Source of the DNA: a virus
Virus genome (UHGV): UHGV-1845973
Strand: one strand, 5' to 3'
Length of the DNA: 21,770 nt
This document shows, one piece after another, positions 13 to 20,116 of the stretch. The notes under the pieces were generated by a model that saw only the letters and a list, made by a program, of their open reading frames with translations, was not told the DNA's origin and did not search any database. The translations under genes and the position numbers were made by a program. Each line of letters starts with the position of its first letter. The first letter of the stretch is position 1.

Positions 13-969
13 TTAACCGATTGCTTTCAGGCCATGAACAAGAGCAAGTTGCGGGTCATCCGCCACGAAGAAACGGTCATCACGAATATTAACTTGCTCG
101 CGAATTGCATCTGCCACCAGCGGTGCGCCACCACCGATCACCATGACATGCGTATATCCTTTAAAGTCGCCAATCACATCAAGAACGCGGGTACGCAGAC
201 GGTCAATGCTTGCGGCAATGGCCTTTTTCACATCACCAATCGCTGATGGGTCATTGATATTGTCGTTCAGATAATCTTCATCGTGGCGGTTAATAATGAG
301 CTGATCAACATTGTAATTGGACGTTTCGGTATTGGCTCTGGCAAGTGCTTGCCTTACTTCCCTGGTAACCAGAGAGACGCCAAGATTCGAATCGCCAAAA
401 ACACGGGAAACTGCCGTCATTTGCCCGGCGACCATTGAAACATCAAGGGTAGTTCCACCCAAATCGACGATAAGAACAGAATGGGCAGGGTTCAGATTGT
501 CGCACAGGCCAATTCCTGCCGGAATAGACTCCGGTCGTACCGTAACTTTCTTAATCGTGAACACATTGCCTTTATTCAACGTGACGGGGCGCATAAGACT
601 GGATTTCTTGCGCTCGATGTTATCGAGATTGTATTGCGCGTCGTCGTCGTAAAACTCCGCCAGAGGCAGCGTGACCACAATTTCTACTTCCTGCGGCTCA
701 ATGCCACTTGTCAGCAGGGCATGGTGAACAGCCAGGACGTTAAGCGGGCTGTATTGCCATTCCACGTTATTCGTCGGCAGAACATCTGGCGAGATCAAAT
801 CATACGAATACTTTTCGTCGTCAATGACATAGTTAAACGGCTTGCCAGCACAAAATGTTGCTGACCATCCGCGCTTAAAGCTGTTAGGGCTGATGTGAGT
901 GCGAGTTTCCCCGTCGTGCTCCCACAGCATTTTGATATTGGTTGAACCATCATCGATAAAAATGCGCAT
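13..969 (-). CDS. parM: ParM-type actin-like plasmid segregation ATPase (type II partition)
   Basis: The translation MRIFIDDGSTNIK...HISPNSFKRGW...VAVHHALLTSG...IVDLGGTTLDVS...GDSNLGVSLVT...THVMVIGGGA aligns along its whole length with R1 ParM/StbA as I recall it, including the actin-fold phosphate and adenosine motifs. I prefer the ATG at 969, which has GGAG 7 nt upstream, over the GTG at 993 used by the ORF track. On the minus strand, positions 12..4 read GAGGTATG, which looks like the start of a downstream parR that runs off the window. Confidence 0.9.
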   Translation of the reverse strand: MRIFIDDGSTNIKMLWEHDGETRTHISPNSFKRGWSATFCAGKPFNYVIDDEKYSYDLISPDVLPTNNVEWQYSPLNVLAVHHALLTSGIEPQEVEIVVTLPLAEFYDDDAQYNLDNIERKKSSLMRPVTLNKGNVFTIKKVTVRPESIPAGIGLCDNLNPAHSVLIVDLGGTTLDVSMVAGQMTAVSRVFGDSNLGVSLVTREVRQALARANTETSNYNVDQLIINRHDEDYLNDNINDPSAIGDVKKAIAASIDRLRTRVLDVIGDFKGYTHVMVIGGGAPLVADAIREQVNIRDDRFFVADDPQLALVHGLKAIG

Positions 970-996
970 CTTCTTGCTCCACTTCTGAGACACATT

Positions 997-3918: not shown

Positions 3919-3964
3919 AACAACATGTGTGTTAATAGATTTTATTTTACTAAACCTATTGACT

Positions 3965-3985
3965 AAATCACAAAGTAGGTATTGT
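3965..3985 (+). promoter_or_regulatory. Candidate -35-less (late-type) promoter: AAATCACAAA-N5-TATTGT
   Basis: The motif and spacing are the same as at 1191 and 20058. It lies 50 nt upstream of the capsid gene start. The adjacent TTGACT (3959..3964) is only 15 nt from the hexamer, which is too close for a normal sigma70 -35. Confidence 0.45.
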
Positions 3986-4034
3986 TAGTCCGTCAAAAGA
4001 ACCTTCACGCCGCGCCCGAATTTAGGGCTTAACC

Positions 4035-5732
4035 GTGAATAAAAACATTCAGCCAGCTCGTGATCGCGAGCGCGAGATTATGAATCGGGCGGCAAGCGTC
4101 ATGGCTATGACCGTCGATCCGACCACCGATGCAGCAGGCAACATGATTGCTGACCAGGCAGTAATGATGGAAAACCTGGATAAAGCAATCCAGAAAGTGC
4201 CTATGTTTGAAGGCGTAAATCCAGAGGTCGCTCGTCAGATCACTGGTGGGTGGGCTATGTCTCTGCATGAGTATAAACGTCAACATGGTCATTACCCGGC
4301 AAGTGACATCCTGGCGAACGCACACATGGCTCTTGAACGCCTAATGACTGAATGTGCCAGTGATACCCACGAAGGCACGGGTAAGGCAATGTTTGAGTCT
4401 GTCGCGCAATCAATGCGTAGCTCTGACGGCGTAATGAAAGTTGCTCAATATGCTGCTCTAATTCTGCCTGCCTCTCTGGGCGCTGCTACCAGTGATGCCT
4501 GTACTTTTGTTCCTTGTGATCGTGACGAGTCAAATATTTATGAACTGGTCAACGTAGCAGGCACAAAATTCGGCACCTTCAAACAAGGTGACGAACTGAA
4601 TATGCAGTCAGCTGGTGTTTATTCTCAAATGAAGCGCCTGTATACCCTTTCCACTAAAGGGGATGGCAGCACCAAAACCTTCCAGTTCGACATCCAAAAT
4701 TTTGAGGGACAATCCTGCCCGCTTCGCGCTGGTTATAGCAAACTGCTGATCAACCGCAAACCGTCCAAAGTTGACGACGGCGATGGCAACCTTTATTTCA
4801 ATGCTAAAGACAGCAAAGGTAAAGCTTTCTCAGCGACTGCCAAAGTCGCCTATGACACTGGTGTCATTGACATTACATTTACCCAGGCTCCGCCAGAAGG
4901 TACTGAAATTGCTGTTCAGGTCGAAATTAACATCGAGCGCAATCCAAGCCTGATTCCTGTGATCAACCAGGCTATGCGTAAGTACGAAGTTCGTCCGTCC
5001 CAGTACGTAATTGCTTCCGAACACACGGTAATGTCCGCATCCGATTTAAGCCGTGAGCACGGCCTTGAATTAGCGGCACTTCAGTTCTCCGCGATGCGTA
5101 ACTGGATCTCCCATGAAACCGACATCATGCGTCTGCGCACCCTGGTATTCCATACCGTTTATGGTCGTGAATTTGATGTGGCTCTGCCGGAAGCTCAAAA
5201 CTATGAGTCCTGGGTCGGCCTCCTGCGTCACGTAGTAAACGCTCTGTCTCAAGAAATGGCAAATCGTACCCTGACAACGGGTATTCGTGGCGGCTTTGCT
5301 GGTGGTGACGCCGCGAACTTCCTGCGCTCTCTGCCTCCACAGCACTTCCAGATCGCACCAGGTTACGTTCAGTCGCCGTATGTACAGTACATCGGCACCC
5401 TGTTTGGCACGATTCGTATTTACGAAGTGCCGCAACCTGTCTGTGAGCAATTCCAGGCACAGGGATATGACTTCGGGCTGGATGACATCTTCTTCTATGG
5501 GCGTGGCGAAGGCATCGGTAAAGCCGGTCTGATTGCTGGTGATGCAGTCCCAGCAATCCCTTACGTGCACGAAACCAATCCGTCTCTCGTTAACCGTACC
5601 ACTCTCTGGGGCAGTGCCATCAACGAAGTACATCCTCGCAACGGTGAAAACTACTTCACCCGCCTGCGTCTGACTCGCGCCAAAGAAGGTGCTATCGACA
5701 TGCTGACAGGCAAGGTTAACGAAAAAAAGTGA
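4035..5732 (+). CDS. Putative major capsid protein precursor (P1 gp23-like, about 62 kDa)
   Basis: It is the first gene of the structural block, followed by an Ig-like decoration-type ORF and the sheath gene. Codon usage looks strongly biased toward high expression (CGT, CTG, GGT, GAA). The size matches my recollection of the P1 gene 23 product. The GTG start at 4035 is uncertain. The function is assigned from synteny and memory, not from a recognised motif. Confidence 0.55.
   Translation: MNKNIQPARDREREIMNRAASVMAMTVDPTTDAAGNMIADQAVMMENLDKAIQKVPMFEGVNPEVARQITGGWAMSLHEYKRQHGHYPASDILANAHMALERLMTECASDTHEGTGKAMFESVAQSMRSSDGVMKVAQYAALILPASLGAATSDACTFVPCDRDESNIYELVNVAGTKFGTFKQGDELNMQSAGVYSQMKRLYTLSTKGDGSTKTFQFDIQNFEGQSCPLRAGYSKLLINRKPSKVDDGDGNLYFNAKDSKGKAFSATAKVAYDTGVIDITFTQAPPEGTEIAVQVEINIERNPSLIPVINQAMRKYEVRPSQYVIASEHTVMSASDLSREHGLELAALQFSAMRNWISHETDIMRLRTLVFHTVYGREFDVALPEAQNYESWVGLLRHVVNALSQEMANRTLTTGIRGGFAGGDAANFLRSLPPQHFQIAPGYVQSPYVQYIGTLFGTIRIYEVPQPVCEQFQAQGYDFGLDDIFFYGRGEGIGKAGLIAGDAVPAIPYVHETNPSLVNRTTLWGSAINEVHPRNGENYFTRLRLTRAKEGAIDMLTGKVNEKK
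5723..5729 (+). promoter_or_regulatory. Candidate -1 programmed ribosomal frameshift heptamer A_AAA_AAG
   Basis: The zero-frame codons are GAA AAA AAG TGA, so the heptamer is in the correct phase one codon before the capsid stop. The -1 frame stays open for 35 more codons, to the TAA at 5834..5836. Confidence 0.3.
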
Positions 5733-5845: not shown

Positions 5846-5866
5846 ACGCCCCTGATTAAGGGGCGT
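5846..5866 (+). terminator. GC-rich hairpin downstream of the capsid gene (8-bp perfect stem, 5-nt loop)
   Basis: ACGCCCCT-gatta-AGGGGCGT. No U-tract follows; the SD of the next gene does. It may be a partial terminator or an mRNA-stabilising element. Confidence 0.35.
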
Positions 5867-7884: not shown

Positions 7885-7891
7885 TTTATAA

Positions 7892-7913
7892 CCCCCGCTA
7901 AATGATGCGGGGG
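7892..7913 (+). terminator. GC hairpin after the sheath gene (7-bp stem CCCCCGC/GCGGGGG, 8-nt loop)
   Basis: It lies 8 nt after the sheath stop. No U-tract follows. It overlaps the purine-rich SD region of the next gene. Confidence 0.3.
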
Positions 7914-9807: not shown

Positions 9808-9828
9808 TTCCCGCCCTTGTGGCGGGAA
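9808..9828 (+). terminator. Hairpin after the tube gene (8-bp stem TTCCCGCC/GGCGGGAA, 5-nt loop)
   Basis: It lies 6 nt after the stop and is followed by ctccttgtattt, a partial T-run. It is the most terminator-like of the intercistronic hairpins. Confidence 0.4.
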
Positions 9829-10421: not shown

Positions 10422-11129
10422 GTGAGTATTTTCAGCAGCGTTGGTAGAACGTTGACCACCGCATTGTCATTTAACACGAAATCATTCACCAGCAACCTCA
10501 TTAGCGACATTCTTGATAAAGCCATATCAGGCGGCGGGGTAAGCGGGAATTACAGTAGCGATATTGCCTACGGGAAAAATATTGTTGCTGCCGCTATGCG
10601 TATCCGTTACGCCCAGGGGTGGCAGTGGACCGTTGAAGTGGATGGCCTGAACGGCTTCGATATGTTCGTGAAGGATATCACCTACAGCAGTGGAAACATT
10701 GAGACAGAAAGCAAGGTGATCGGCAGCGTAGAATTCAGCAAGCCAACCTATGTTAGCGCTGGACCGGTCACTATGACCGTGAGGGATACCGAAGATGGCA
10801 AGATCATGGACTGGTTCAAAGAGCGTCGTTCTCGTGTAACAAATCCTGATGGAACAATAAACCTTCCTCCGGAATATCTGATGAAAATCCGTGTCTACCG
10901 GGTAACTCAGGACGGCGGAAAAGAACTGGAAGAAGAAATGCGCGTATTTCCTACACAACTTGGGGAAATCACTCGCTCACGTGATCAGGTGTCAGAGTTC
11001 TTGTCATACCCAATCACTTTCCAGAAATACACATCTGCAGGCTCAGGTGTTTCTGCCTTGGTCAACGGTGCCGCTGGCATGGCTACAAGTGCGTTAAAGG
11101 GGGCTATCAGTGGAGTGATCAAATTCTGA
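10422..11129 (+). CDS. Hypothetical tail or baseplate protein (235 aa)
   Basis: The GTG start has GGAGG 7 nt upstream. The pattern W.W.VEVDG...FVKDITYSSG...TMTVRDTEDGKIMDWF...PPEYLMKIRVYRV loosely recalls T4-type baseplate or tube-initiator proteins. I consider this similarity weak. Confidence 0.4.
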   Translation: MSIFSSVGRTLTTALSFNTKSFTSNLISDILDKAISGGGVSGNYSSDIAYGKNIVAAAMRIRYAQGWQWTVEVDGLNGFDMFVKDITYSSGNIETESKVIGSVEFSKPTYVSAGPVTMTVRDTEDGKIMDWFKERRSRVTNPDGTINLPPEYLMKIRVYRVTQDGGKELEEEMRVFPTQLGEITRSRDQVSEFLSYPITFQKYTSAGSGVSALVNGAAGMATSALKGAISGVIKF

Positions 11130-11140
11130 AATGCTTTAAT

Positions 11141-11364
11141 TATGTGTGCTGTAGGGAAAGGTTTACGTTAAATGTGTGCTGCCGGGAAACCCCATTGCTC
11201 AAGATGTGTTGTAGAGGGAATGGTAATGGCAACATGTGTGCTGGAGGGGAATTTCGCATGTAAAGAGCGTCATTTATCCCTCCAGCACACATCTGAAATA
11301 AGCAATCCTCTGAAATTCCCTCCACCACACATCCAGACATGAAACTATCCCTTCAGCACACATT
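11141..11364. repeat. incA-like iteron array: seven 19-bp RepA-binding repeats downstream of repA
   Basis: Four copies have the GATGTGTGCTGGAGGGAAA orientation, at 11141, 11171, 11203 (diverged) and 11233. Three copies have the opposite orientation, at 11275, 11315 and 11346. The last overlaps the repA stop codon. The core CAGCACACAT/ATGTGTGCTG is conserved. Confidence 0.85.
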
Positions 11365-12227
11365 TAATCTGTTGGTTTAAGTTTCGGATTCCGAGAGTGA
11401 ACGATAATGAAGTTTTCACGACCTTGCTTTTCAATGGTGCAATCGAGATAACCTATTGTTTTTAACTGGTCTATAGCTTTTTTTATCGTTCTGTTTTGCT
11501 CACTTACCGATGACATCAAGGCTAATCTTTCACGTATTCTGGCAAATGAAATAGGTATTGGACGTGCCGGGAGGCTTTCTATAAAGGTATATATGGCCTG
11601 GGCTGCTTCTTTTTTAGGTAAAGCGCGAAGTGCGTGTTGCTGTAGAAGCACCCGATAGTCTAGCTGGAAGATTTCCCATAACTTGGAATCAGCCTCCAGT
11701 TCAACGACATCTGTTTCAAAGTCAAAATATCCCGTTTTAAGCAGGCCAGTATTGTAGCTTCCACGAGCACTTTTCCCTCTTTTGAATGAGATGCCTTTGT
11801 TGCGTAACCGACCTAAAGAATCGTGGATCGTGTTTCTTAATTTCCCATCAAGTCGCTTAGATGGAAATCCGCACGCCTTTGCAAATTCTTGAAAAGAAAG
11901 GCGAATTGTATTCGATGATAAGCCATACTTGCTAAATGAGTAGATTACCCCAATCCAGACTTTGAAATCAGTATCCATGTCCAAGCGAGGGCCAGTGATC
12001 TTGATGTTGTCGTAGCCTTCTGCTTGAGCTATTTCCAATTTGGAAAAAACAGATGATGCATCTATCTCGTTGTTTTCACCCTGTTTTTTAGTTGGTTTAG
12101 GGACGAAAACACCAAGCCGCATAAGTGCGACAGGTTGAACAGTATTGTTCGAATTAACTGTTAATTCTTTAGCCTTGCTTTCAATGTCAGCATAAAGAAT
12201 ATCAGAGATAAATGACTTATCCATCAA
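11364..12227 (-). CDS. repA: P1-type plasmid replication initiator RepA
   Basis: The 287-aa product is near-colinear with P1 RepA as I recall it: FISDILYADIESKAKELTVNSNNTVQPVALMRLGVFVPKP...ITGPRLDMDTDFK...LSFQEFAKACGFPSKRLD...ALPKKEAAQAIYTFIESLP...IVHSRNPKLK. It is flanked on both sides by P1-type 19-bp iterons. Confidence 0.95.
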   Translation of the reverse strand: MMDKSFISDILYADIESKAKELTVNSNNTVQPVALMRLGVFVPKPTKKQGENNEIDASSVFSKLEIAQAEGYDNIKITGPRLDMDTDFKVWIGVIYSFSKYGLSSNTIRLSFQEFAKACGFPSKRLDGKLRNTIHDSLGRLRNKGISFKRGKSARGSYNTGLLKTGYFDFETDVVELEADSKLWEIFQLDYRVLLQQHALRALPKKEAAQAIYTFIESLPARPIPISFARIRERLALMSSVSEQNRTIKKAIDQLKTIGYLDCTIEKQGRENFIIVHSRNPKLKPTD

Positions 12228-12280
12228 TAAGTTACCGTCATGTTGTGAATAAAGTTTACGACAGTGGATATCCGGCTTTT

Positions 12281-12384
12281 TTTCCCGTCAGCACACATCC
12301 TACATCCCGTCAGCACACATGTAAAACCCTCCAGCACACATATTTTTCCCGTCAGCACACATCGTTCTCCCTCCAGCACACATC
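12281..12384. repeat. incC-like origin iterons: five direct 19-bp repeats
   Basis: TTTCCC(GT/TC)CAGCACACATC-type repeats start at 12281, 12303, 12324, 12345 and 12366. The spacings are 22, 21, 21 and 21 bp, about two helical turns, and all copies share one orientation. They lie immediately upstream of repA, as in P1 oriR. Confidence 0.9.
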
Positions 12385-12429
12385 TGAATAGTGGTTAAAG
12401 CCTTATGTGGCGCGGCCTGAAGAGCTACG

Positions 12430-12492
12430 GGATCTATTTGGTACTATATGGATCTAATCAGGATCTATATATTGGATCTATCCTGTGGATAA
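12430..12492. other. oriR-like origin core: four GGATCTA heptamers carrying GATC (Dam) sites in an AT-rich stretch, plus a perfect DnaA box
   Basis: GATC occurs at 12431, 12451, 12462 and 12475, each within GGATCTA. TGTGGATAA at 12484..12492 is the reverse complement of TTATCCACA. A weaker DnaA-box-like AGTGGATAT lies at 12262..12270, between the iterons and repA. Confidence 0.8.
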
Positions 12493-12578
12493 AAAAGAAG
12501 AATTACAAAGCTCCACCCAATTTCACACACTACCTATCCTCCAACGAATAAACAGACATCTGCTTATCGGAGGAATAC

Positions 12579-13400
12579 TTGAACATTCCAAAATTCCCAT
12601 TGCCTTCCCGTCCTGAGACAGAAATTCAGTTCCACGCCCCTACCGTGAAGGATGCGCTGAAATATTCTGACCTGAACCCGGCAGAAGATGAGGCAACTAC
12701 TACAGAGTACCTTAACTCTATGCAGGATGGTGAAATTAACGACAGTGCTTACTGGACAGTCCAGGATCGCAGAACTGCCCTTTGGTGGATATTTGTTAAT
12801 TCGCGCCCCGATGCAGTAATGACCTACTCCTATGAGTGCAGTCACTGCGGTAATACGCATCATGCAGATATTAACCTGAGCGACCTGGCCCAAACAGTAG
12901 AAATACTCACTGTACCTCCTTACGTGAAAACCAACGTACCAGTAAATGGAGTACCAACTGACTGGATACTTAAACCATTAACCGGGAAAGGTGCGGAACT
13001 CCTTGAACGAATGCGAGCGTCACTTCCTGATATGAAAAGTCCCGAATACAGTGCTGGCGTAGCACGGATGCGAATTGCTGAACTCGCTTTATGCACGGCG
13101 CTTGAAGACGATCCGGAGGACTTCACGCAGGCCGCTAACCGACGCTTTGACATCATTGAAAGCATGGCGCTTGAAACCGAATTTACTCCGCTTGTGGCTC
13201 GCATACAGCTTATGCAAAAAGACCTACGTCACGGCCTGAAAATGTCTATTGAGAGAGGCTCAAGCCGACTGATCCTGCCTCCGCAACATTGCAAAAACGC
13301 TAAGGAGGGTGCAGATGTGACAACCACACTGTACGTCCCCTTTCTCAATAGAGAGTTTATCCCATCAATTAGATCTGAATGGATGGCTAACCATTATTAA
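12579..13400 (+). CDS. Hypothetical tail assembly protein (273 aa) preceding the tape-measure gene
   Basis: The TTG start has GGAGGA 4 nt upstream. The gene sits directly upstream of the giant tail protein. It contains a CSHCG...HH element. The function is inferred from position only. Confidence 0.4.
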   Translation: MNIPKFPLPSRPETEIQFHAPTVKDALKYSDLNPAEDEATTTEYLNSMQDGEINDSAYWTVQDRRTALWWIFVNSRPDAVMTYSYECSHCGNTHHADINLSDLAQTVEILTVPPYVKTNVPVNGVPTDWILKPLTGKGAELLERMRASLPDMKSPEYSAGVARMRIAELALCTALEDDPEDFTQAANRRFDIIESMALETEFTPLVARIQLMQKDLRHGLKMSIERGSSRLILPPQHCKNAKEGADVTTTLYVPFLNREFIPSIRSEWMANHY

Positions 13401-13414
13401 CAACCTGACTCTGT

Positions 13415-16400
13415 ATGGATATCAGCCCATTAGTGACGTTGAACAATTACCGCAATGGCGAGCACTCCATATGTCAAAAGCCCTGGAAGAAAAATACAAA
13501 GCTCAAGCCGGGAAACGTTGATCGCGCTGGTAAAAGAGAGGTTATTTTGAAAGAGAATAAAGACCGTATCGCAATAATTGACGCTATTCAGGAAGCGAGC
13601 ACAAACGAACTTAAAGCTCTTGCTGAGGTAAAAGACGCCATTCTTTCTGGGGCAAGCACCATAACTCAACAGGACGAAAGGCAAGGCAGAGTTAGCAACA
13701 GACTATCACGCAGGCGTAAAGAGTACGAGCAAAGTACATCTGATAGCGTTAGAGATGTCCAAACTAACCCATATAAAAAACGTCTCCCTGCTAAAAAGGA
13801 GAGGGCACCGATAAACCAAACCGTGGACCGCTCTATCGTTGCAACGAACACACCAGAAAGTGTTCGCTCCGTGCAATCACGTCAGACCATCCGAAAATCG
13901 GACGGTTTTATACCGGTAGCTGCTAATTCAGCCCCTCTTGAACCACAATCCCCCCAAAGTCTAAAAGGCCCGCTGCGGGATAGTAATGGACGTTTTGTAT
14001 CCCAAAAAAGCAATGAGGATGTAGCCAGAAAAAAAGAATTGCAGAACGCACGTAAAGCCGACGCAAAATTACAAGCTGGCTTTCTCAGAAAGCTAGGTTC
14101 CATTATGGGGGTAGATGGCAATCGGTCTTCCAGTGAAGAGTCTTTAACAAATGCAGCTGGTGTCGGTGCTGGTGGGCCGTTCTGGATGGCGGCTCGTGGC
14201 ATGTACGACATAACTAAAGAGATCACAGGTAAAGCAGAATCTCTTAAAGAATGGGTAGAAAAGGGGAAAAAAGAAACATCAACCTCGAAAGCAATATCAC
14301 CAGTAATTACTTATCCGGCGGCGGTGAATTCTCAAAAAGCAACATCTGCAAAAGCGTTCAATAACGCTGTTGAGACAAAATCCGCACAAGCAGTAGAAGA
14401 GCAAACCAAAATCCTTCAGACCAATGACAACAAAATAATTGATGGTCTGGAAAATGTTTCTGACGAGATAGTTAAGCTTCGGAAATCAGTGTCTTCTGGA
14501 AATAAGTTCGGCTTAAGTGATCTCTGGAAAAATCGAGCAAGCAGAAGAAATAAAATCAATATTGGTGATCAGACGGGAAAAAATAAACGGAACAAATCGA
14601 AAAGGAAAGGACGCAATCTTGGGAAAAAAGCACTCTCCGCTGGCGAAAAAGTTGCTGCCGGTAGCGCTGCGGCTGGCACTGGTGTCGGAGCAGCAAAAGT
14701 AGTTAAAAATAAGATCAGCAAACCCAAAGATGTAAGCACTATCAGCGATACATCAAAGGGGATTGCAAAGGAAACAAAAAATACTGCTAAGGCCGTGAAG
14801 TCAGCTGGTGTTGTGGCTGAAGATGCCACCATTAAAACCGGCGAAGCCATTGCAAAGAAAAAAACTGAATCTGTAGCCCTCAAAAGTGCTGCAAAAATAG
14901 GTGTTAAATCAGCAGCATCCACAGCGGCAAGAGCGGTCCCTATCATCGGTTCGCTGGCAATGGCTGGATATGACGCCATAGATGGTTACACAGATACAGA
15001 GGCGCAAAAGGCAGCCTTTGGATTAAGTGACGATAATGCTGTATCCGAACAGCAAAAAACGGCTTACGCAACAGCTAATGTGCTCGATATGGGGGGCTTG
15101 GTGTCGGGCGCAACGAACTTGATAGGGAAAGGAATTTCTGCGCTAGGATTTGAAAGAGCAGGTGAAAAACTTCAGAATTTTGATACCGGAGATATTGCTC
15201 GTGGTGTTAACGGCGCGGTAGATATCACCAAATCTGTTTTTGGTAGCCTTAAGGATACATTTTTATCCACTGATGAAAACACGAAACAAGTAAAAAAAGC
15301 TGTTGAAGACGGCACCAAAAAAACTGTCGATGCGATTCATTCTCTAGGTGAACAATTACAAGGTGGGCGTAATGGCGAGGATGGAGTTGGTGAGCACGGG
15401 TATACTTCTCCAACTGAATTTAGTGCACCTGCCAACAACACCATTGCAGCGGATCTGAATATTGGCGGCAGCAACGCTAAAAACCGCAATTACCGAAATA
15501 ATAATCTCGGCAATCTTGTTTTTGCCAACCAGGAAGGGGCGACGCTGGAATCGCCAAATGCAAAAGGTGAACAACGTTTTGCGCGATTTAACACACCTGA
15601 AGAAGGGATCAGGGCACTGGCAAACCAGGTTTCCAGCTATTACAACGGCACCAGTGCCGCAGCGGGATATCAGAAGTTACAGACGGTATCCAGCATCATT
15701 TCAAAATGGGCACCGCCAAATGAGAACAATACTAACCAATATATTGATAACGTCAGTAAATATCTTGGTGTATCGCCTAATGAAAAAATAGATGTCAGCA
15801 AACCAGAGGTTATGACGCAATTAGTTCGTGCAATTGCGACGAAAGAAGGCGGAAATCCGGCAGTTAATAATGAGTTCATTAAGAACGCACTTGGAGCATT
15901 TAACACAAACACTGGTCGATGGGAGGGACAATTCTCTGACGAAACATTGGCGCGGATTAATAAAATTCAGAAAGAAAATGGTGGTCAGCTAATTGCCCGC
16001 GATTCGCAATATAGTGTTGGTCGCAAGGTAAAATATGCTAATGGAAAATCTCCAGCTCAACCAGTTTTGAATGCCGTTCCGACAGCAACACAACAGCCAA
16101 TTGAGGTTGCACAACATGCCCAGGCAGTCAAAAAGCCACAAAAAACAGGTAACCAACCACAACCGATTAATCCAGAGAACGCTGATGTTAATACCGGCTC
16201 TCCATCGAGTTTGCTTGAGCGGTTAATCACAATAAATGAAAGCGGAATCAGTGGTGCAAGTAATTTATTTGGCGGCGCGGCTACCAGCCTTGCTGGAACA
16301 AGTCTGGACCTGGTAAAGGATTTTGCGTTGGCTACTTCGTTTGGTTCTATATCTTCGCTTTCCGAAAAAGCGAAAGGAATGGATCAGGCTCTTACTGAAA

Positions 16401-17359
16401 AGATATCCGGCTTAACCGGTAAATCTTTTGGATTTAAAATAGCTTCTCAAGTGGCTGATATCGCAACAGCCATACAACAAAAACGCACTGTTAATCACGA
16501 TACAGAAATCATTGATCTACTTCCGGGAGATCAAGTATCCCCTTCTACTCCGAAAACCCCACAGCAGGAGCAGGCTCTAGCAATCAGCCAGGCTATGGAG
16601 GGCTTTTCATCTGCAGCGCCAGCACCGAAAACCCCACAGCAGGAGCAGGCTCTAGCAATCAACCAGGCTATGGCGGGAGCTGCGCCAGTAGTTACCTCTG
16701 GAAAACGAACTATCACGGCACCAAGTGATGTGCAGATTTATGACAACGGCTACAAGGTGGTTACAGGTGAGGATAAGAGCTTCTTTGGTTCGCTATTTGA
16801 TTCCACGGTGTCAGGGCTTAAACAGACAGGAACCGCAGTAATTCCTGCCGTTGGCGATAACCTTTCACGACTTGTTGGGGGGATTGATAGTACAGGGATA
16901 TTGAACGATCTTGTAATGCAGTCTACTGGGCAGAATAGTGCGATTGCGCGAGCTATTAGCCCATTAACAAGAAATGTTGGAGACTGGCTGAATGGGGGGA
17001 TTCAACAAACCGCTAATAGCATTAGGGGAATAGCAACTGGTGCCAATAACGCCATATTTGGCTCTGCTTCAGCTGTGCAAGAACCTTTTCTTGCTATGCC
17101 GCCACAACTCCCTACTGTAACCGATCTCGCACGAAGCGGAATAAGACAACCATTAACTACTGACACTATAAATAACGATCCTGCTATGTTGAAGGCGCTG
17201 GATAACATCTGCTCTATCCTGAACGATCTGCTGAATGTGAACAAGAACAATACAAAAGGCGATCCGGATAATGTTGTCAAAACATCGCAGCCGCAGCCGC
17301 GACCACGTGCGAGCACAACTATTAATGACCAGTCGCTGGATGCTCTGCTTGAGGATTAA
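13415..17359 (+). CDS. Tail tape-measure / injection protein (P1 Sit-like), 1314 aa
   Basis: It is the largest gene and lies just upstream of the baseplate genes. It has long Ala/Lys/Gly-rich helical and hydrophobic segments typical of tape-measure proteins (AAGSAAAGTGVGAAKVV, VPIIGSLAMAGYDAIDG). A globular domain is embedded at about 15480..15900. The start is ambiguous: ATG 13415 has no SD, while in-frame TTG 13547 has AAGAGAGG 5 nt upstream. Confidence 0.7.
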   Translation: MDISPLVTLNNYRNGEHSICQKPWKKNTKLKPGNVDRAGKREVILKENKDRIAIIDAIQEASTNELKALAEVKDAILSGASTITQQDERQGRVSNRLSRRRKEYEQSTSDSVRDVQTNPYKKRLPAKKERAPINQTVDRSIVATNTPESVRSVQSRQTIRKSDGFIPVAANSAPLEPQSPQSLKGPLRDSNGRFVSQKSNEDVARKKELQNARKADAKLQAGFLRKLGSIMGVDGNRSSSEESLTNAAGVGAGGPFWMAARGMYDITKEITGKAESLKEWVEKGKKETSTSKAISPVITYPAAVNSQKATSAKAFNNAVETKSAQAVEEQTKILQTNDNKIIDGLENVSDEIVKLRKSVSSGNKFGLSDLWKNRASRRNKINIGDQTGKNKRNKSKRKGRNLGKKALSAGEKVAAGSAAAGTGVGAAKVVKNKISKPKDVSTISDTSKGIAKETKNTAKAVKSAGVVAEDATIKTGEAIAKKKTESVALKSAAKIGVKSAASTAARAVPIIGSLAMAGYDAIDGYTDTEAQKAAFGLSDDNAVSEQQKTAYATANVLDMGGLVSGATNLIGKGISALGFERAGEKLQNFDTGDIARGVNGAVDITKSVFGSLKDTFLSTDENTKQVKKAVEDGTKKTVDAIHSLGEQLQGGRNGEDGVGEHGYTSPTEFSAPANNTIAADLNIGGSNAKNRNYRNNNLGNLVFANQEGATLESPNAKGEQRFARFNTPEEGIRALANQVSSYYNGTSAAAGYQKLQTVSSIISKWAPPNENNTNQYIDNVSKYLGVSPNEKIDVSKPEVMTQLVRAIATKEGGNPAVNNEFIKNALGAFNTNTGRWEGQFSDETLARINKIQKENGGQLIARDSQYSVGRKVKYANGKSPAQPVLNAVPTATQQPIEVAQHAQAVKKPQKTGNQPQPINPENADVNTGSPSSLLERLITINESGISGASNLFGGAATSLAGTSLDLVKDFALATSFGSISSLSEKAKGMDQALTEKISGLTGKSFGFKIASQVADIATAIQQKRTVNHDTEIIDLLPGDQVSPSTPKTPQQEQALAISQAMEGFSSAAPAPKTPQQEQALAINQAMAGAAPVVTSGKRTITAPSDVQIYDNGYKVVTGEDKSFFGSLFDSTVSGLKQTGTAVIPAVGDNLSRLVGGIDSTGILNDLVMQSTGQNSAIARAISPLTRNVGDWLNGGIQQTANSIRGIATGANNAIFGSASAVQEPFLAMPPQLPTVTDLARSGIRQPLTTDTINNDPAMLKALDNICSILNDLLNVNKNNTKGDPDNVVKTSQPQPRPRASTTINDQSLDALLED
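16550..16673 (+). repeat. 75-bp-period tandem duplication inside the tape-measure gene
   Basis: The 49-bp cores at 16550..16598 and 16625..16673 differ at a single base. They encode PKTPQQEQALAI(S/N)QAM twice, 25 aa apart. Confidence 0.9.
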
Positions 17360-20025: not shown

Positions 20026-20051
20026 TTCTTCCCCCGCATTTGGGGGAAGAA
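20026..20051 (+). terminator. Perfect 10-bp hairpin (TTCTTCCCCC-gcattt-GGGGGAAGAA)
   Basis: It lies 4 nt after the stop at 20022. No U-tract follows. It sits immediately upstream of the promoter-like motif at 20058. Confidence 0.4.
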
Positions 20052-20057
20052 CAACGG

Positions 20058-20078
20058 AAATCACAAACTGAGCATACT
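20058..20078 (+). promoter_or_regulatory. Candidate -35-less (late-type) promoter: AAATCACAAA-N5-CATACT
   Basis: This is the third copy of the motif architecture. It lies 39 nt upstream of the ATG at 20117, which heads the tail-fibre operon. Confidence 0.45.
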
Positions 20079-20116
20079 CTCCTTTGGTTCATTGCTTATG
20101 AAGGGGCTATGTTCGT

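Follow-up and report, generated by a model that had tools for sequence, protein, structure and literature searches.

We find that positions 11130-12578 of the window (the whole stretch of 21,770 nt from the virus genome UHGV-1845973 that was analysed) are filled by a complete minus-strand iteron replicon of the P1 family, between tub, which ends at 11129, and pmgB, which starts at 12579. It is likely that this region is the prophage-maintenance replicon of a phage-plasmid of the D6 lineage (P1g2), which lies antisense in a boundary between late units that already existed. Judged by its sequence, it is a theta replicon of the P1 family (IncY-like) in minimal form, consisting of oriR, repA and incA and lacking par genes. 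The initial annotation had described a minus-strand replicon that is antisense between plus-strand tail genes, and both its anatomy and its coordinates were borne out. The same layout is the rule in phage D6 and throughout its clade, and thus not special to this window. The replicon and its neighbouring features are:

3963-3987, plus strand: late-promoter-like motif CTAAATCACAAAGTAGGTATTGTTA ahead of the major capsid gene, the equivalent of LP23; the late unit ending at tub presumably starts here
10422-11129, plus strand: homologue of tub (tail tube protein), last gene of the upstream late unit
11141-11364, minus strand: incA-type copy-control array of seven 19-bp iterons, found by their match to the P1 iteron GATGTGTGCTGGAGGGAAA (forward at 11141, 11171, 11203 and 11233; reverse at 11275, 11315 and 11346)
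11364-12224, minus strand: repA, iteron-binding replication initiator of 286 aa, by homology to P1 RepA
12244-12252, minus strand: DnaA-box-like 9-mer TTATTCACA with one mismatch, lying between the origin iterons and repA; its counterpart in the alignment with P1 oriR is the DnaA box region next to repA
12281-12384, minus strand: five origin (incC) iterons, spaced by 22, 21, 21 and 21 bp
12325-12320 (-35) and 12302-12297 (-10), minus strand: sigma-70-like repA promoter inside the origin iterons, matching the P1 annotation of PrepA and iterons 10-14
12427-12492, minus strand: host-factor part of oriR with four GATC-containing repeats (12431, 12451, 12462 and 12475), by alignment with P1 oriR
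12484-12492, minus strand: perfect DnaA box, by alignment with P1 oriR
12499-12523, plus strand: poor tandem late-promoter box AGAATTACAAAGCTCCACCCAATTT, inside the cassette
12518-12542, plus strand: late-promoter-like motif CAATTTCACACACTACCTATCCTCC, about 38 nt ahead of the start of pmgB, for pmgB-sit-pmgA-bplA-16
12579-13400, plus strand: pmgB homologue with a TTG start and a GGAGG ribosome-binding site, first gene of the downstream late unit
13415-17359, plus strand: sit homologue, next after pmgB

The assignment to the P1 family is based on the initiator and on its binding sites. RepA shares 84% amino acid identity with P1 RepA over 283 residues and matches the Pfam family Rep3_N with 28.6 bits (cut-off 22.4); on the identical plasmid pB2C_96, repA is annotated as a RepB-family initiator. 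A sequence search of the PDB with RepA gave no match, nor did an Rfam search of the window. The incA iterons differ from the P1 iteron by one to four mismatches, and scanning the P1 iteron consensus over the 21.8-kb window resulted in zero matches beyond the replicon. As in P1, the last incA iteron overlaps the repA stop codon. The whole origin can be aligned base for base with P1 oriR. Furthermore, the incA array, when folded as plus-strand RNA, forms a long nested hairpin (-105 kcal/mol, z = -5.4) without a U tract.

When comparing the replicon to that of P1, we find the same 19-bp iteron consensus, five origin iterons with an internal repA promoter, GATC repeats and DnaA boxes, whereas the nucleotide identity is only about 71%. 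The incA iterons show the same split-orientation pattern but are arranged as 4+3 (seven) instead of 6+3 (nine) in P1; there are four instead of five GATC sites, and one upstream DnaA box instead of two in tandem. In P1, parA-parB-parS is attached to the replicon. Here, it is missing downstream of incA, which instead abuts the tub stop codon, with the first iteron beginning 12 nt past it. The sole partition-like gene in the window is of the parM/StbA type (13-993, minus strand).

By analogy to P1, DnaA and RepA monomers would bind to the DnaA box and the five origin iterons, upon which the adjacent GATC-rich region would open. RepA would repress its own synthesis through the repA promoter embedded in the origin iterons, and the seven incA iterons 3' of repA would titrate RepA and pair with the origin (handcuffing), resulting in a low copy number. 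We infer this biochemical mechanism from the homology with P1. Copy control may differ quantitatively from P1 because of the seven compared to nine incA iterons and the one compared to two tandem upstream DnaA boxes. As the iteron consensus is identical to that of P1, an incompatibility cross-reaction with P1 and P7 (IncY) is predicted, although the nucleotide identity is so low; MOB-suite typing of the pB2C_96 replicon gives rep_cluster_2221, not IncY.

The position of the replicon differs from that in P1, where oriR-repA-incA-parAB is annotated elsewhere, between upfA and gene 23, and is co-oriented with its neighbours. Here, it lies between tub and pmgB and is antisense to both. That P1 does not split its tail genes with repA, as stated in the initial annotation, agrees with the P1 annotation, in which pmgC-tub-pmgB-sit is contiguous and unbroken behind LPsit, with tub and pmgB adjacent. 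The tub flank of the window is 98% identical in nucleotides to the D6 flank that contains orf43 ('similar to P1 tub'), and the tub product is 51% identical to P1 Tub; the pmgB product is 40% identical to P1 PmgB and has a weak Pfam match to T4_baseplate. Overall, the phage backbone shows 27-57% amino acid identity to P1 whereas the replicons show 84-85% to the P1 group, and we thus conclude that replicons have been exchanged laterally. This exchange with the P1 group occurred although the slot of P1 differs.

The replicon had been read as splitting the tail operon, leaving the downstream half with a degenerate late-promoter copy near 12500. We observed that D6 contains six copies of a late-promoter motif, all intergenic and on the late strand (upstream of mat, upfC, 23, pmgB, R and lydA), where about one match is expected by chance. 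This late promoter of the D6 clade is putative and defined by its comparative pattern only. It differs in sequence and spacing from the P1 late-promoter consensus (-22 box AAGTGACTT, 4 nt, TANAAT; from the P1 annotation), and scanning for the latter gave no meaningful match in either the window or D6. On the plus strand of the window, no further copy occurs between the motif at 3963-3987 and position 12518. The copy at 12518-12542 is degenerate, with ATTT instead of AAAT at the cassette junction, and scores 9.3 bits (P of about 0.06 in the shuffled intergenic region, not significant on the score alone), whereas the orthologous motifs before pmgB score 12-19 bits in relatives (D6 15.1, L008 14.6, L009 12.3, L036 19.0 and L037 17.0; L labels are IMG/VR loci), with L006 lower at 7.7 bits. 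The box at 12499-12523, which is also present in L006 and scores 2.7 bits with a leave-one-out matrix, is probably the copy that had been noted at 12500. A degenerate copy is thus confirmed there, and the better one is that at 12518-12542.

Alignment of five loci shows the motif core TCACACACTnCCTATCCTC without variation beside each cassette type. In the window, it occupies 12523-12541 with one substitution and an altered upstream A-tract, and the homology between the window and D6 breaks at 12523. In L037, the nearest replicon-free relative, the 108-nt gap between tub and pmgB holds a GC hairpin followed by a late-promoter-like motif (17 bits). A gap without any replicon thus already carries both signals, and the core is unchanged beside every cassette; therefore, the two halves were separate late units before the replicon arrived, and the view that the replicon splits an operon does not hold. 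The replicon would have entered an existing boundary, where one late unit ends at tub and another starts at the late promoter before pmgB.

Besides the window, this slot is occupied in many related elements. In D6 (NC_050154), orf42, annotated as a replication initiation protein, lies antisense between tub and pmgB. In total, an antisense replicon was found in the slot in phage D6, in more than 100 plasmids of E. coli, Salmonella and Shigella, and in about 30 IMG/VR contigs. The slot holds four initiator types, all of them antisense, in addition to relic iterons of former occupants. The window matches the circular 96-kb plasmid pB2C_96 at 100% identity, and the window replicon is the only typed replicon there. 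The same cassette is found in nine PLSDB plasmids and in seven of 5,426 complete E. coli genomes, in each case within the slot and on a plasmid. D6 and about 100 plasmids have flanks that are 98% identical to the window and an antisense cassette of an unrelated Rep_3 type. D6 thus shares the backbone, the slot, the orientation and the late-promoter core at the right with the window, and differs in its initiator (251 aa) and its iterons TGAGGGCAAATCTTACACC. The third type is p0111-like, with a Rep that is 85% identical in amino acids to that of pO111_2. The p0111 reference pO111_2 itself was considered as a further case of the D6 layout and rejected, as it has the P1 order with Rep next to par. 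The fourth type belongs to the RPA family and is found in L039, for which a search of PLSDB gave no match.

A full rep-par module fills the slot in the Enterobacter D6-like plasmids NZ_CP085744.1 and NZ_CP074151.1 and in L036. These share with the window the slot, the orientation, P1-type iterons, oriR and the late motif before pmgB, and their RepA is 93% identical to the window RepA; however, they carry parA and parB and a strong plus-strand intrinsic terminator directly after tub, both of which the window type lacks. In a survey of 80 IMG/VR loci, a replicon was present in the slot where pmgB reaches 81% identity or more, and otherwise in L039 alone; the other loci have a gap of 14-108 nt between tub and pmgB and no replicon. 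Searching genome contigs with PmgB returned one locus only, on a D6-like contig binned as Roseburia.

Traces of earlier occupants remain beside the present ones. Right behind its tub stop, D6 carries two relic iterons of the P1 type, L006 and L008 have D6-type iterons left of the p0111-like cassette, and the origin part with GATC sites and DnaA box is 95.8% identical between the window cassette and the p0111-like cassette of CP042620.1. From this comparison of sequences, the slot is a replicon-exchange hotspot that has been refilled repeatedly, by IncY-like replicons with or without parAB, D6 Rep_3 and p0111-like replicons, and by RPA in a separate lineage. We infer the order of the replacements from the relic iterons rather than from a dated phylogeny. 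Switching between replicon types (IncY/p0111) in P1-like phage-plasmids has been published (PMC9603915, PMC11165635, PMC10879196). In both cases, initiator cassettes are swapped on a conserved phage backbone, and a p0111-like cassette also occurs in the tub-pmgB slot; however, the published switching concerns the P1 subgroup, with a co-oriented slot next to upfA/par, whereas the slot described here lies between tail genes and is antisense. Replicon type and slot are both already known, and our main result is a clarification of the normal architecture of D6-like phage-plasmids. That one intergenic slot houses four initiator families helps to understand how phage-plasmids can switch their incompatibility type while leaving the virion genes intact.

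That no terminator follows tub, as had been noted before, is supported by RNA folding: the segment 11125-11175 folds at only -3.5 kcal/mol and has no U tract. Scanning and folding the plus strand over 11130-12578 revealed no convincing intrinsic terminator anywhere, and none was found on the minus strand between repA and tub. Strong terminators directly after tub are present in L036 (-26.3 kcal/mol, U7) and L039 (-21.4 kcal/mol, U6), whereas no terminator is seen there in the window type or in the p0111-like type, and D6 offers a weak candidate only. RNA folding detected the terminators in L036 and L039, which a simple scanner had overlooked due to its loop limits. Neither pmgC nor tub is preceded by its own late motif, so that the transcripts expressing them must reach 11129, 12 nt from incA. 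With the terminator absent and the pmgB late promoter weakened at the junction, late transcription ending at tub thus very probably enters incA in this variant. Patches that are C-rich and G-poor were computed at 11260-11380 and 12260-12420. We had considered a link between terminator loss and late-promoter weakness and dropped it, as L008 has no terminator yet a good motif. It had further been proposed that read-through silences plasmid replication or that the replicon insulates the two halves; the former is plausible, and the comparative evidence points both ways. Searching the literature for transcriptional interference in phage-plasmids gave no results. As otherwise similar elements differ in whether they have the terminator, they provide a natural experiment on interference between late transcription and plasmid replication.

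The antisense placement itself may have several explanations. The foremost, which we hold to be a serious possibility albeit short of probable, is that orientation and position have no function: a single insertion into a permissive boundary would be a frozen accident, kept by swaps via homology inside the old cassette. The shared origin part and the relic incA iterons at the left suggest that crossovers took place inside an earlier replicon, which would fix the orientation. Furthermore, the boundary predates the insertion, and there are only about two truly independent acquisitions (D6 Rep_3 and RPA), such that a uniform orientation would arise by chance in about 1 in 4 cases. However, replicon-free lineages (L037, L038 and L040-L042) lie between the D6 clade and the lineage of L039, whose RPA replicon nevertheless has the same site and orientation, and this hints at a preference.

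Selection during lysogeny might also account for the placement, which we consider rather unlikely. The antisense orientation would keep transcription from the constitutive plasmid promoter PrepA (and from Ppar, likewise constitutive, where present) out of pmgB-sit and the tail genes, and would prevent that late transcription over-expresses RepA in sense. All cassette types have their initiator directed away from pmgB and their origin end next to the late promoter; and as no minus-strand terminator separates repA from tub, repA transcripts would run out as harmless antisense RNA instead of sense tail mRNA. Yet P1 tolerates repA-parAB followed by gene 23 on the same strand, and with few independent choices of orientation the pattern could be due to chance.

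Still somewhat less likely is an active role in lytic growth, in which convergent late transcription through incA, antisense repA and oriR shuts off plasmid-mode replication and may partly supply the expression of pmgB-16. The open path from the tub stop to pmgB and the transcripts that must reach 11129 are in line with such a role, as are the weak pmgB late motifs of the window type and L006 and the antisense orientation of four of four cassette types. However, L036 and L039 do the opposite with their strong terminators right after tub, which argues against read-through as a conserved design, and terminator loss and promoter weakness are uncoupled in L008. The 1.4-kb untranslated stretch with its C-rich, G-poor patches might be a natural target of Rho, although this is only suggestive. 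Phages of the P1 type replicate lytically via repL/oriL, and silencing oriR is thus not obviously needed.

We regard it as improbable that this sub-lineage has been rewired, such that the loss of the tub-proximal terminator and of parAB and the damage to the pmgB late box made transcription of pmgB, sit and the baseplate genes rely substantially on read-through across the replicon, which would collide with transcription from PrepA and sweep RepA and DnaA off oriR. If this were true, tail-gene expression and the arrest of plasmid-mode replication would be linked mechanically. Lastly, that the arrangement arose by misassembly, or by a recent insertion unique to this one sequence, has practically no probability left, as it is refuted by identical or nearly identical arrangements in many independent complete plasmids, one cultured phage and IMG/VR contigs.

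Judged by sequence, the window derives from a D6-like phage-plasmid. The E. coli plasmid pB2C_96 (NZ_CP035876.1, 96 kb, circular) is 100% identical to it over the 3.1 kb tested, and phage D6 is 98% identical to the flanks of the slot, that is, the gap between tub and pmgB. With P1 gene names as used in the D6 annotation, the plus strand carries upfC, upfB, 23 (capsid), an Ig-domain gene, 22 (sheath), 21, pmgG, bplB, pmgC and tub to the left of the slot, and pmgB, sit, pmgA, bplA, 16 and R to its right. Between the tub stop at 11129 and the pmgB start at 12579 lies a complete P1-family replicon on the minus strand:

11141-11364: seven incA iterons, four forward and three reverse
11364-12224, minus strand: repA, 286 aa, 84% identical to P1 RepA
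12244-12252: DnaA box with one mismatch
12281-12384: five origin iterons, enclosing a promoter-like hexamer pair
12484-12492: perfect DnaA box

The origin also contains four GATC sites, and P1 oriR aligns with it over its length. The split orientation of incA is common to both (6+3 in P1, 4+3 in the window), and no P1-type iterons were found in the rest of the window. The minus-strand plasmid replicon of the initial annotation is thus confirmed by repA, the iterons, the GATC sites, the DnaA boxes and the oriR alignment. We conclude that it is an ordinary, functional-looking P1-family replicon in the slot that is standard for the D6 lineage. About 10 kb from it lies a ParM/StbA-type partition gene (13-993, minus strand); partition and replication are unlinked in this lineage, whereas P1 has a single rep-par block. 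The homologue of sit (tape-measure/transglycosylase, 13415-17359) encodes 1314 aa and is longer than its counterparts in D6 (1260 aa) and P1 (1140 aa); its BLASTP alignment to P1 Sit is limited to a short segment.

The initial annotation had also held that repA does not split the tail genes of P1, which agrees with the P1 annotation: pmgC-tub-pmgB-sit are contiguous and preceded by the annotated late promoter LPsit, and oriR-repA-incA-parA-parB-parS are flanked by upfA and gene 23 and share the strand of these neighbours. The P1 layout is also found in Cronobacter phage JK004, a Punavirus and pO111_2. D6, in contrast, has the layout of the window, with orf42, an annotated replication initiation protein, antisense between tub and pmgB. 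An antisense initiator in this slot occurs in about 115 more PLSDB plasmids (Escherichia, Salmonella, Shigella). Among 80 IMG/VR loci retrieved using a PmgB alignment, the gap holds an antisense initiator gene wherever PmgB identity is at least 81%, and then measures 1.45-1.77 kb (4.0 kb in L036, which carries a rep-par module). The remaining relatives, including all P1-like ones, have a spacing of 14-108 nt; the sole exception is the distant locus L039.

The slot is occupied by four initiator types, antisense in every case. The window type was found in nine PLSDB plasmids and in 7 of 5,426 complete E. coli genomes, and no more. A P1-like module complete with parA and parB fills the slot in L036 and two Enterobacter plasmids, whose RepA is 93% identical to that of the window. 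The D6 type is a Rep_3 protein of 251 aa with its own iterons and no sequence relation to the window RepA. The p0111-like type (294 aa; carried by L006 and L008) shares 42% identity with P1 RepA and 85% with the Rep of the p0111 reference, pO111_2. The fourth is an RPA-family initiator (PF10134; L039 3534-4790) with about ten TTCGTACATCGCGGATA iterons spaced by 21 bp; L039 had no match in PLSDB. Its slot and orientation are as in the D6 clade although its PmgB is just 54% identical, and the lineages in between have a slot without replicon. An isolated tub fragment (92% identical) adjoins IS903B in L010 (NZ_CP026578.2, 3582-4811), a conjugative IncFIB resistance plasmid with tet(A) named pQnrS1, and looks like what remains of a D6-like element. 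An 11-kb D6-like contig, L015 (CALWLV010000256.1), with a D6-type Rep and a PmgB about 99% identical, is binned in a MAG labelled Roseburia, almost certainly a binning error.

Relic iterons at the tub-proximal end of the slot point to earlier occupants and successive cassette replacements. In D6, two P1-type iterons remain directly 3' of the tub stop (L001 9743-9783), and the homology between window and D6 extends to 11156, through the first incA iteron. D6-type iterons, together with the final few bases of D6-type repA, remain left of the p0111-like cassettes (L006 1243-1283 and 1321-1557; L008 2472-2664). L006 and the window are 95.8% identical in the stretch of the origin that holds the GATC sites and DnaA box. 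Furthermore, RepA is 84% identical to P1 compared to 27-57% for 15 backbone proteins; the D6 and P1 groups have therefore exchanged replicons laterally. Published work already describes IncY/p0111 replicon switching among P1-like phage-plasmids, as well as the swapping of replicases to escape incompatibility (PMC9603915, PMC11165635, PMC10879196). Group P1g2 in PMC10879196 comprises D6 and NZ_CP066033, and the cassette of the latter is of the window type. Replicon and slot are of known kinds; what this comparison modestly adds is the succession of occupants in the slot and the finding that some relatives have a terminator and others lack one. That all cassettes are antisense could be due to selection, for instance against plasmid promoters that read into the tail genes. 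Homology-guided replacement could account for it equally well, since only about two acquisitions are independent. The Enterobacter-type element of L036 has a near-consensus sigma-70 promoter facing pmgB inside its origin iterons (4737-4764, plus strand; TTGACA, 16 nt, TATTAT; 11/12 matches), which has no equivalent in the window.

The replicon had been described as splitting the tail operon; this does not hold, as the boundary is older. In L037, the nearest replicon-free relative, the 108-nt gap contains the tub stop, a GC hairpin, a late-promoter-like motif, a ribosome-binding site and pmgB. Boundary and predicted promoter therefore predate the replicon, which entered an existing operon boundary rather than an operon interior. 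A motif scan of the window found no P1 late-promoter consensus; the D6 clade has a distinct motif family, AAAT(C/A)ACA(A/C)A(G/C)T, 3 nt and a -10-like nAnnnT. Its core occurs six times in D6 (minus strand of the record: 72122, 56920, 54146, 45513, 38137, 31533), each time in an intergenic region of the late strand and directly ahead of the operons of mat, upfC, 23, pmgB, R and lydA (holin), compared to a chance expectation of about one match per 91 kb on both strands. D6 also encodes an Lpa homologue. The window has copies at 1189-1213, 3963-3987 and 20056-20080, a degenerate copy at 12518 and a poorer tandem copy at 12499. With a leave-one-out matrix, the site upstream of pmgB scores 19.0 bits in L036, 17.0 in L037, 15.1 in D6 (P about 0.001), 14.6 in L008, 12.3 in L009 (another compared locus), 9.3 in the window (P about 0.06) and 7.7 in L006. 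The core TCACACACTnCCTATCCTC is unchanged across five loci, with a neighbouring leader that differs by about 20% among them. The degenerate motif before pmgB noted earlier is present, and its weakness is due to a change from AAAT to ATTT located precisely at the cassette breakpoint, 12523.

Likewise, no terminator had been seen between tub and incA, and our terminator scan and folding found no convincing plus-strand terminator in 11129-12578. The first 50 nt 3' of tub fold with just -3.5 kcal/mol, whereas strong canonical intrinsic terminators, missed by a simple scanner, lie on the late strand directly 3' of tub in L036 (1065-1112; -26.3 kcal/mol, U7; rep-par module) and L039 (3401-3434; -21.4 kcal/mol, U6; RPA-type replicon). 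The incA array as RNA folds into one long nested hairpin (-105 kcal/mol, z = -5.4) that lacks a U tract; at 12277-12283 there is a weak T7 run. D6 has just a weak candidate, and none was found after tub in the p0111-like cassettes. The absence of a terminator is probably a derived state in the window variant, and the terminators of L036 and L039 show that a design with read-through into the replicon is not conserved. In the window, the motif scan found no late motif upstream of pmgC or tub, so transcripts expressing these genes have to extend to 11129 and very probably continue into incA. Rho termination of this untranslated antisense RNA is plausible because of C-rich, G-poor patches on the plus strand of the replicon region. 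That late read-through shuts down plasmid-mode replication during lytic growth, as initially proposed, seems improbable to us. GC-rich hairpins without a plus-strand U tract also follow the capsid region (5846-5866), the sheath gene (7889-7910), bplB (9809-9826) and gene 16 (20030-20050); the minus strand of the first (5866-5846) carries a T-run, so that this hairpin resembles a terminator acting on antisense transcripts.
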